A program made the position numbers and the translations under genes. The notes beneath the pieces were generated by a model that was given only the letters and a program-made list of their open reading frames with translations, was not told the origin of the DNA and did not search any database. A DNA stretch of 64,000 bases from Kondoa subrosea (Eukaryota): the NCBI GenBank assembly GCA_039545335.1, contig BCIN01000003.1, forward strand, positions 2,117,060 through 2,181,059, written 5' to 3'. Numbering within the stretch: position 1 is the stretch's first letter; every line of letters starts with the position of its first letter. Of the stretch, positions 56,057 to 59,891 are shown piece after piece.

Positions 56057-57534
56057 TCACACAACTTTGATAATTATAACAGCAGCTGCAACCCCTAGCA
56101 AGCACAACAGAACGAGCCCGATAGCCCAAAGAATGCGCTTCTTAGTCCACCAGCCTTCTTTCCCTTTTGCTGCCGCAGGCTTTGCGAATTGTCTTGGAGC
56201 AGAAACAGGCAAGGGAAGAAGACCAGGTCTGGCTTTCTCTTCACTAAACCGAGACTTGTTTTCAGCGAACCCAAATGGACTATGCGCCTCGAAAGCTCTT
56301 CGTTTATCTGCATCCCAATATCTACGAAGGCTATTAGCTGGGTCAAAAGCTATCTGCACAAAGACTGACTGCTGTAGGCTCGAAATAGATGTTTTGCGAA
56401 CAAGTGAAGAAGCTTGAATGGGTTCCAAGAAGCTTGAAGTAGGCATATTGATCGACTGATGTGAAAGAGTAGAGAAAGAAGGAGCAGCTGAAGTAGAACG
56501 AGAATGGACACTTGTGCTGTGTCTGGTTGTATCTCTGGACTCGTGTAGATCTGATTGCGAACGAAATCGAGTTGCAACTTTCCTTGAGTGAGAGCTTCCT
56601 GCGGAATTGCGAAGTTCTCGTAAATTAGGAGGAGGAGAGGGAAGGACAATAGCCTGTGAAGGGATAGCTGGCAGATCTGCATCTTTGATAGCTATTAAGG
56701 CAGGCGACTTAGGTGTAGAAGGTGCTGAAGTTTTGCTTTGTTTGAAAGAGGCGCGGGTTGGAGTTGTCGGAAATGACATGGTGCTGGGTAAAGCTAATAA
56801 GAGGGTAAGTGAAGTACGAGAGTAAGAACTCAGCCGACTTACGGACCAAAGGTGTCTGTCTATGGCCTGAATTTGGCCTTGATGAACTCTTGCGCCCTGA
56901 AGTAGGTCGAGAAGGAGAATTCTTGACCACAGAAGACCGTCTAGAATTGGAAGAAGAAGTTCTTGTAGGTCTAGGAAGAGGATTTGTGGACTGGAAGGAC
57001 TTTGCAATAGGTTTCTTTGGCGATTTGCTATCGAGTGAGTAACGCGAAGGATCGATTTTTGGTTCCGCCGGTAGGGATTTCTGTACCAGGATTGGATGAT
57101 GCTTATCATGACGAATCTCTTCTAATTTGGTAGGAGAAGGTGCAAGTCCATAAGAATCGATCCAAGTTGATTCTCTGAAAGTCTGTCTTTTAGCCACTAT
57201 GATATGGGCTTCAGATAAAGAGGAGCGAGACATATGATCTTGATCTTCTGCTGAACTGTTCTCAGCGGAAGAGGAATCGTTGTAGTAAAACCCTCGAGCT
57301 TCGTCTTCCGATAAGTTGGTTATAGGTGGACTTGGCAGCACTTCATTTTCTAGATCCCATAGTCCGCCTGATACAAGTCAATTAGACTTTATGTGAATGA
57401 AAAGAGCAAGAACAACCTGTTCTTGGCCCAAATGAACGTCGACTGCAAAACCCTTTGATAGTCAGAAGCTAGACAGAGACGAACGAGATGTCAAGCACTC
57501 ACGGTCGCTTACATCGAGGCCGACGTCTATCCAT
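56057..57534 (-). CDS. Uncharacterised S/P-rich tail-anchored protein
   Basis: Four exons join in frame (MDRRRPRWFCSRRSFGPRTGGLWDLENEVLPSPP...) and end WWTKKRILWAIGLVLLCLLGVAAAVIIIKVV. Confidence 0.65.
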
Positions 57535-58110: not shown

Positions 58111-59145
58111 TTACAACTCAAGGCCTACAAGAACGAAGGCATCTGATTGAGCTGATTGATTGGCGGGCATGACGGCACCACCAATGTAGAGAAGGGAGTG
58201 AAGAGTTTGAGCTGTGTTCATAAAGCACGTTCAGCTCTTGATAGAGCCTGAAGCACTTCTGACTCACCTAATTCGCAGTCATTCTTTTCAAGAACAACTA
58301 CAACCTGATCGCAAGCCAAATCTTCATCGGCGTGATCCAAAAGAGCAATCACGTTCTCCCTTGAGCGAACGTCGAAACCGCTCTGCCCTTTAGCATAAAC
58401 GGTTCGACCACCTTCACAATCCTCGACGAGAGCCAAAGACCAGCCGGTGAGCTTGGAGTCGACGTTGAGAGCGGTGCGGCCAACATCACAAGTCGGAAAG
58501 ACAGACTCCAAGAAGGTTGAGCTTGAAGGACCAAAGAAGTCGAGAGAATCGGTTGACGATGCTGGAGAAAGCATAGGAGCTGCAAAGGAAGATTTGCCAG
58601 CTTTGTTGAGCATCATGCCGAATGACGAGATTGAAGAGCCACCGAAAGAGGAAGCAGGAGAAGTTGAAGGAGTGGATAGAGGGGATAAGTCGGAAGCCAG
58701 GGTATCGATTACAGCCATAGAAGAAACAGAGTCGAGAGAAGCAGCCAAGAAACGGTTTGTGTCTTTCACCCACTTGCCGTCACCTCCAACAATATTGGCA
58801 TCAATTGAAGGCATTTGCTCGTGGTCGATGCTGTGTTGACAAGCTATGTTCAGTACATTGCAAAGTACGATGAGACTCATTCTGCTCACTCAGGACCACG
58901 ACTCGACCCCAATGGCCAACGTGCTGAAATTGGTGTTACCAGCAGTAGAAGTAGCGCAAGAAACAGGAGCCCTATAACAGAAATGTTAGGACAAAGGACT
59001 AATCGGTCAATATTGCCATTACCCATCACGAGTCAACTTTGCCAAGTTGCTCAAGGGGCGCATCTATACAGTGAATGAGGTCTCGACCGATGCCTATGCT
59101 CTATCCCATCCCACTTACACTAATATTGGCTGAATTTGGATTCAT
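58111..59145 (-). CDS. OAZ1: Ornithine decarboxylase antizyme (needs a +1 ribosomal frameshift)
   Basis: ORF1 (49 aa; exons 59145-59119, 59063-59023, 58971-58890) ends TGG TCC TGA. ORF2 in the +1 frame contains RENVIALLDHADEDLACDQVVVVLEK...LHSLLYIGG...VLVGLEL. Confidence 0.93.
58890..58898 (-). other. Programmed +1 frameshift site UGG-UCC-UGA
   Basis: The UCC-UGA shift site of mammalian and S. pombe antizymes. It puts ORF2 exactly in the +1 frame after splicing. Confidence 0.9.
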
Positions 59146-59891
59146 TTCGATGTCTTTGTACTGCCAGCTGTCGAGAGCGAGCGCAAAATGGGTAAAAGCA
59201 GTGGTAAGTCCTGAAGACTGCGCTAGGGTTGCCTAAAAAGGCTGGGAAAGATTGACTTGGTGGTTGAGGATAAGCTATTCGAGTTTGAAAGAACTGACTT
59301 CGCCACTTTGGGTTCAACGTGCGGTAAATTGCTCCTGTGTCAGACTGTGCTACATCGAAGTGCATGGCAGAGTCATAGTATGCCACTGATCTGCTCCTGT
59401 TTTTGAGACAGCGAGTTTTCCGTTTTGGCGAGTTCTTCCAGTTTGGGTTTCAGCATGTCAAGTCACTCTCCTCTCATTTTTACTATTAGGCGTATCCCTT
59501 TCCCTGCCATGTCGTCGCTCTTCCGTATGCCATCGACTGCCAATCTTTTCGCTTTTTGATGCTTTACCCTTTGTTCGCCAATTAGGCTTGCCTCGACTAA
59601 TATGTACAGCGCTTCCCTTGGGCAAGCTCTGTGCTCACTTCTGCGCAAAACTGAATGCGCAATAGTCCTCGCTCGAGCTGAAACCAACCTTCTGAAATGG
59701 GCCTATTGTCTGCGCATCAACTCATTCCGCTCTGATGTTTCAAGTCTGATGTTCCTTGATGTGATGTGATTGGATTGGATACCTTGGAATGTATATAATG
59801 CTCCTTCTACATCCTGTTTCTTTTCTCATCACCCTCACTTCTTGTTTCACTTTCATTCAAAACACACAATAACATATTCTTCTCAAGCACA

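Follow-up and report, generated by a model that had tools for sequence, protein, structure and literature searches.

Antizymes of the Pucciniomycotina and Ustilaginomycotina (PMC4505036, list S2; PMC1874602) share a short ORF1, a UCC-UGA shift site with GAC as the first shifted codon, the letters AAAU about 16 nt further on, stacked stems closed by a GUGANAG loop, and a C-terminal ODC_AZ domain (throughout, papers given by PMC number are cited for the accessible parts of their text). The length of ORF1 in antizymes ranges from 17 to 86 codons (PMC1874602), and the 3' two-stem element has been described for all three basidiomycete subphyla (PMC4505036). Agaricomycete antizymes, such as that of Coprinopsis cinerea, use a UUU-UGA site and have, in ORF1, a stem and a nascent-peptide consensus, YYYSTTFSGGP, at codons -15 to -5 (PMC4505036). 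The Cryptococcus neoformans antizyme gene has a GUU-UGA site without the 3' two-stem element (PMC1874602, PMC4505036); exon 2 carries the site within its final 31 nt, an intron follows soon after it, and the annotation of the gene had fused the two frames by way of a false donor 31 nt upstream (PMC1874602).

We analyzed an antizyme gene found in the window, which is the whole 64,000-nt stretch of Kondoa subrosea DNA considered here. The gene has all of the features listed above for the Pucciniomycotina and Ustilaginomycotina and differs from their antizymes in two respects: an intron (intron 3) stands directly behind the stop codon of ORF1, and a UCG codon occupies a position where UGG is usual. 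With the Agaricomycetes it shares the 3' two-stem element and the outer arms of a hairpin in ORF1, the shift site being UCC-UGA in place of their UUU-UGA. The original prediction for this locus placed a +1 shift site at a splice junction and proposed that retention of the intron could add a second layer of control.

Structure and Identity of the Antizyme Gene

The gene lies on the minus strand in five coding exons separated by four introns, with coordinates and letters as first described:

59119..59145, minus strand: ORF1 exon 1, AUG at 59145-59143, 9 codons
59064..59118, minus strand: intron 1, 55 nt, GTAAGT...TAG; missing in the four related loci L001-L004, with no RNA joint listed
59023..59063, minus strand: ORF1 exon 2, beginning with a second in-frame AUG
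58972..59022, minus strand: intron 2, 51 nt, GTAATG...TAG; RNA joint in three of four runs
58890..58971, minus strand: ORF1 exon 3, its last base being the last base of the stop codon
58890..58895, minus strand: +1 shift site UCC-UGA
58831..58889, minus strand: intron 3, 59 nt (3n+2), GTGAGC...ACTGAAC...CACAG, directly behind the stop; RNA joint in four of four runs
58268..58830, minus strand: exon 4, third base of the first shifted codon and most of ORF2
58212..58267, minus strand: intron 4, 56 nt, GTGAGT...CAG; RNA joint in three of four runs
58111..58211, minus strand: exon 5, end of the antizyme domain and TAA

ORF1 consists of 49 codons over three exons (59145-59119, 59063-59023, and 58971-58890), the last of which ends on the minus strand in TGG (58898-58896), TCC (58895-58893), and TGA (58892-58890); exon 4 opens with C at 58830, followed by ATC GAC CAC GAG CAA ATG. 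Coordinates and letters confirm the predicted placement of the stop on the last base of exon 3 with the 59-nt intron at once behind it, and the sequence of the window likewise confirms that the first shifted codon, split as GA|C, and all of the 3' context are present only in spliced mRNA. After splicing, the +1 frame begins D-I-D-H-E-Q and continues for 221 codons to the TAA at 58113-58111 (minus strand), giving the spliced model a slip product of 270 aa.

Identity as an antizyme, the +1 site, and the gene model are all borne out, by a domain match, by the arrangement of the ORFs, and by the loci of relatives described below. ORF2 matches PF02100 (ODC_AZ) with E = 6.8e-6 and 26.4 bits against a cut-off of 24.2, and the spliced relative P0001 matches the same family at E = 9.5e-8. 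The genome (18.9 Mb in 27 contigs) contains a single PF02100 match and one ODC-like locus. At 49 codons ORF1 falls within the range known for antizymes, and it ends in a shift codon and UGA with ORF2 in +1. A sequence-profile search of the PDB with the antizyme returned no matches, and a search of Rfam returned no antizyme element, its four matches all being at chance level. In a tree of 56 domains, in which deep branches are weak, the window falls inside a 100/99 clade, apart from the rust-like, Rhodosporidiobolus, Violaceomyces, and agaric rows.

The next gene downstream (56057-57377, minus strand) presents two long open frames, of 354 and 222 codons, that overlap by about 410 nt and are probably one gene with an intron; the longer frame has no Pfam match.

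The Spliced Junction in Relatives

The RNA data come from runs of relatives: among 24 runs the best shared 12% of words, and four of the 24 were aligned to the window, at 82% likeness. The joint 58830->58890 appears in all four, skipping 59 nt, with CT..AC ends and no ambiguous letters, and its shorter side measures 19, 19, 21, and 73 letters, so that one of the four exceeds the 31-letter bar set for a bridging record. In one run, a further contig continues from 58890 into a diverged exon 4, which likewise starts with C-AUC-GAC. Stronger support for splicing is provided by a metagenome scan, which yielded four loci (L001-L004) of about 1 kb each, with 90, 85, 77, and 77% identity to the modelled CDS: every one of them crosses all four junctions without introns, and we take them as transcript contigs. 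Two of these loci, L001 and L002, read UCC-UGA-C-AUC, and the other two, L003 and L004, read CCC-UGA-C-AUC. The distance from the ORF1 start codon to the shift site is equal in the window, L001, and L002, the contigs spanning the junction of exons 1 and 2. Searches of genome contigs and of viral contigs found no related antizyme loci. The UGA-C joint that cDNA had been predicted to contain is thus found in the RNA of relatives, in each of the four runs and each of the four loci.

An in-frame joint of ORF1 to ORF2 through other splice sites had been named as evidence that would speak against a frameshift, and four donors in the window (58920, 58902, 58899, and 58896) would indeed fuse the frames if used with the same acceptor. 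The donor at 58920 scores 5/9, with G at +5, and thereby equals the true donor. However, these alternative donors occur in none of the five joints listed, and the shift site is kept in four of four loci. Use of the donor at 58920 would remove 31 nt, the same as in the C. neoformans mis-annotation, which is contradicted by ESTs and likewise arose from a false donor 31 nt upstream (PMC1874602). We therefore regard it as very unlikely that splicing joins the two frames.

Shift Site Context and 3' Stimulator

Removal of intron 3 turns the UGA-G of the unspliced transcript into UGA-C. In antizymes a C behind UGA is described as making a weak terminator, and a G gives an efficient stop context (PMC1874602); with C as the base after the stop, the weak context is present in the spliced mRNA. 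Splicing also reduces the distance to a 3' stimulator from 75 nt to 16 nt:

58751..58816, minus strand: 3' stimulator-like element, with AAAU at 58816-58813, stem 1, stem 2, and the loop GUGAAAG at 58769-58763

In the spliced form only, AAAU begins 16 nt after the first base of GAC, and we read the same spacing by eye in the rust, smut, and Microbotryum rows of list S2 of PMC4505036. The AAAU abutting stem 1, the stacked stem 2, and the 7-nt loop are all present in the window and in four of four loci. The fold energy of the element is not beyond that of shuffles (z -1.6 in the window, range -1.3 to -1.8, and z -0.2 for a longer stretch), and the match to the known stimulator consequently rests on motif and position.

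The codons at the shift are UCG-UGG-UCC in the window, L001, and L002, and UGG-UGU-CCC in L003 and L004. The second codon before the shift codon is therefore UCG in the window, as against the usual UGG, which is strongly conserved in antizymes, although exceptions exist (PMC5009743). The CCC shift site of L003 and L004 is without a Basidiomycota counterpart in the accessible part of Table 1 of PMC1874602. With intron 3 removed, the transcript is an ordinary basidiomycete antizyme mRNA, and its mechanism would be the known one.

Upstream of ORF1, a 5' untranslated block (about 59165-59200, minus strand; L001:57-100) is conserved in all four loci, and a one-base gap within it in L003 and L004 speaks against its being coding sequence.

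Position of Intron 3 among Related Genes

The chance that one of four introns in 814 coding nt falls at the exact ORF1-stop junction is p ~0.005, and the chance of an intron inside or bordering the shift codon and stop is p ~0.034. Such a placement is uncommon for one gene but is expected somewhere among hundreds of antizyme genes. Intron positions in relatives were obtained by back-translating proteins called on unspliced DNA. In P0004, P0007, and P0017 (62-79% protein identity), Ser replaces Asp at the start of ORF2, a reading that the same acceptor would allow. The sequence of P0007 further allows a UCC-UGA with a GTGAG donor behind it, giving an intron of 55 nt (3n+1); a loose form of this pattern of site and donor occurs in 27 of 25,247 sequence windows. 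On these protein sequences, the position of intron 3 looks ancestral to the clade. The farther relative represented by P0020 and P0019 would have no intron there, since the genomic call P0020 traverses the shift site in the third frame of the spliced P0019.

The reading frame through the intron bears on whether unspliced mRNA could itself yield antizyme, either through UGA read-through or through reinitiation at the AUG within intron 3 (58880-58878, minus strand). No stop interrupts the ORF2 frame within the 59-nt intron, and retention of the intron leaves ORF2 in the frame of ORF1, as this route needs. Yet the G after UGA is an efficient stop context (PMC1874602), and a stop-free stretch of 19 codons is common by chance. 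Moreover, the inferred 55-nt intron of P0007 shifts ORF2 to another frame, so that the reading frame of the retained form is not kept between 3n+1 and the 3n+2 of the window. Antizyme synthesis from unspliced mRNA is, in our assessment, extremely improbable.

Among smut-like fungi, P0083 (Violaceomyces palustris) has 34 additional residues separating W-W-S from the start of ORF2. P0083 and P0053 are both compatible with an acceptor within the stop codon (UG|A), in a weak test in which two of eight codon pairs fit. Residues 59-92 of P0083 and the N terminus of P0053 mark a candidate UG|A intron in these fungi, and the Violaceomyces model seems, from its sequence, to retain part of such an intron and thereby to fuse the frames. 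By analogy, the C. neoformans gene hints at an intron in a position like UGA|. A broader profile search of proteins added three, none informative on intron 3.

In six models (P0036, P0090, P0114, P0060, P0077, and P0078) an ORF1-like start runs into ORF2 in one frame, and the first three of these are NCBI models, probably with invented introns. It is true, as the original prediction had it, that gene callers overlook such genes, but this was already known (PMC1874602). Our search of largely open-access literature found, among the papers listed, no report of an intron at an antizyme shift site, and the accessible main text of PMC4505036 makes no mention of introns or splicing.

C-Terminal Peptide of ORF1

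The last codons of ORF1 include the stretch that corresponds in position to the peptide signal of Agaricomycetes:

58905..58937, minus strand: ORF1 codons -15 to -5, where Agaricomycetes have their nascent-peptide signal (PMC4505036); putative function

In the window these codons read N-T-N-F-S-T-L-A-I-G-V, and the Agaricomycete consensus is not reproduced: there is identity at -10 and -6 only, with Thr and Gly, respectively, and similarity at -9, where both have a hydrophobic residue (PMC4505036). The stretch N-F-S-T-L is kept in four of four loci, with one synonymous change in its codons over five sequences, and the codons upstream of it vary. Within it, S-T-L at codons -11 to -9 stands in exact register both with Violaceomyces P0083 and with the T-T-L and T-T-F of smut and mushroom peptides (PMC1874602); the authors of PMC4505036, in the accessible part of that paper, saw no peptide similarity outside the Agaricomycotina. 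In the +1 frame, Trp at -9 occurs in 19 of 26 non-agaric sequence windows, many of them redundant, which hints at constraint at the level of the bases. A nascent-peptide sensor in ORF1, which the original prediction had raised, is plausible from these comparisons.

ORF1 Hairpin and +1-Frame AUG

We observed two features that were absent from the original prediction, a hairpin in ORF1 and an AUG in the +1 frame:

58969..59059, minus strand: ORF1 hairpin, 40 nt in spliced mRNA, GCCCC...AUGGGGC
59024..59026, minus strand: AUG in the ORF2 (+1) frame, the third AUG of the mRNA, within the hairpin and 80 nt before the shift codon

The last three bases of the hairpin lie in exon 3, and intron 2 divides its 3' arm. 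It folds at -18.4 kcal/mol (z -3.7). In the alignment, 94% of cells are paired and two pairs are changed on both sides, a covariation count that draws on four distinct rows and that 35 of 500 shuffles scored as high. The outer arms are the same as those of the ORF1 stem described for Agaricomycetes (PMC4505036, list S1), and the hairpin, known from that group, is now extended to a distant basidiomycete clade. From the end of the hairpin to the shift codon the distance is 73 nt in the window, compared with about 106 nt in Agaricomycetes (PMC4505036). That two RNA elements of this gene, the hairpin among them, are completed by splicing is expected of a compact gene with four introns.

The frame that begins at the +1-frame AUG (59026) is open to the end of ORF2, over 249 codons. 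Both the AUG and a frame that stays open past the shift site are found in the window and in all four loci (AUG at L001:176, L002:152, L003:141, and L004:137). It arises from the D-G codons of the hairpin, and its context has a purine or U at -3 and G at +4. In a manual count by eye, we found it in 35 of the 35 Agaricomycete and Dacrymycete ORF1s of list S1, where it is retained even if the codon switches from Asp to Asn, and its frame reaches ORF2 in 13 of the 35 mRNAs.

Leaky scanning to this AUG could give a 249-aa antizyme without a slip, which would be basal, polyamine-independent, and, in this gene, equipped with a hydrophobic leader. The AUG and open frame of the window model and the four loci, and the occurrence of the AUG throughout list S1, argue for such a bypass. 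However, the AUG is the third of the mRNA, behind two ORF1-frame AUGs and within a stable hairpin, and its conservation is largely explicable by that hairpin. The product itself is not conserved, as the 13 of 35 open frames indicate, and the hydrophobic leader is disrupted in P0002 and P0005. In our view the +1-frame AUG mostly follows from the hairpin, and the odds that it serves as a genuine bypass are low; as the frame is open in the whole clade, some antizyme may come without a slip. The original prediction had named translation from an ORF2 AUG as evidence against it, a point on which the AUG at 59026 touches.

A signal peptide in the +1 leader was considered and rejected, the leader being broken in relatives. 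The +1-frame AUG is not mentioned in the accessible part of the alternative-starts section of PMC1874602. Several database proteins, and with them the public model P0117 (Scleroderma), begin at this AUG, masking the frameshift; in P0117 it is a false start, and database proteins that start there are biased evidence because gene callers choose the longest open frame.

Intron 3 and Proposed Polyamine Control

Were splicing of intron 3 regulated, for example by polyamines, the retained mRNA would make no antizyme and only spliced mRNA could undergo the slip. The features of the retained mRNA are in keeping with such control, since it has a strong UGA-G stop, a stimulator 75 nt off, and a +1 frame that leads nowhere, and the logic is sound in that none of the 3' signals is in place before splicing. 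Because the donor directly follows the stop codon, its exon side has to be UGA, which matches the consensus poorly, and we count this in favor of regulation. To this are added the position of the intron, apparently kept in three close relatives and near-identical in two distant ones (judged from proteins), and the action of polyamines on U2/SF3 splicing factors in mammalian cells (PMC12999471).

Several observations stand against this proposal. Scored against the U1 consensus, the donors of introns 3 and 2 both reach 5/9, that of intron 1 reaches 6/9, and that of intron 4 reaches 8/9; the donor of intron 3 is thus no weaker than that of intron 2. The intron is missing in the P0020 lineage and belongs to another length class in P0007. 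The product would be lost just as well if intron 1, 2, or 4 were retained, and a gate therefore does not need the position of intron 3. Long persistence of the position would fit a function, but intron positions persist anyway. The RNA depth of 0 over 58840-58886 in all four runs weighs neither for nor against the proposal, as these are contigs of relatives that drop rare forms and whose introns are possibly too diverged to align, and the same holds for the lack of an intronic loose end among the 18 of 26 loose ends listed. Among the 20 of 23 papers listed in a literature search, none linked antizyme to polyamine-controlled splicing. With a donor like that of intron 2, a retained frame that is not conserved, and a product that retention of any intron would break, the proposal of intron retention as a second layer of control found no support, and we consider regulated splicing of intron 3 quite unlikely.

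In a wider form of the proposal, several basidiomycete lineages would have kept an ancient intron that interrupts or abuts the ORF1 stop (UGA|C here, UG|A in the Ustilaginomycotina, perhaps also in Cryptococcus), because its splicing acts as a polyamine-sensitive gate before the frameshift; polyamines would then be sensed twice by one gene, and the AUG of the hairpin would add a slip-independent route. This, too, has only a slim chance of being correct.

A comparable arrangement is that of SAT1, for which Hyvonen et al. 2006 reportedly described unproductive splicing under polyamine control via a regulated poison exon. In SAT1 the splicing and the translation of one polyamine gene are both polyamine-controlled, as had been proposed here for the antizyme. 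SAT1 differs in having a demonstrated poison exon, whereas for this antizyme no second isoform appears in the relatives' contigs of four runs, which drop rare forms.

Discussion

The gene structure, the spliced junction of the relatives, the domain, and the conserved RNA elements that we observe are best explained by a single ODC antizyme gene of a basidiomycete, from whose transcript four ordinary spliceosomal introns would be removed, the third lying exactly after the ORF1 stop. By analogy with known antizymes, ribosomes on the mature mRNA would read 49 codons and pause at UCC-UGA-C, where a share of them would slip +1 and read GAC, which yields the 270-aa antizyme. Polyamines most likely raise the frequency of this slip, to which sequence within the last 15 codons of ORF1 and the 3' two-stem element would contribute; the antizyme would presumably bind ODC and then shut it down. 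Intron 3, for its part, would be inherited, constitutively spliced, and without a control role, a neutrality to which weak evidence points. We judge this explanation as a whole, a normal antizyme mRNA with an intron 3 that is most likely neutral, to be probable.

With this gene, the antizyme catalogue gains a lineage, in which the shift site is unreadable from genomic DNA. If it is true that splicing of intron 3 is polyamine-controlled, splicing and recoding would be coupled on one fungal gene, which would constitute a clear new layer on the textbook circuit.
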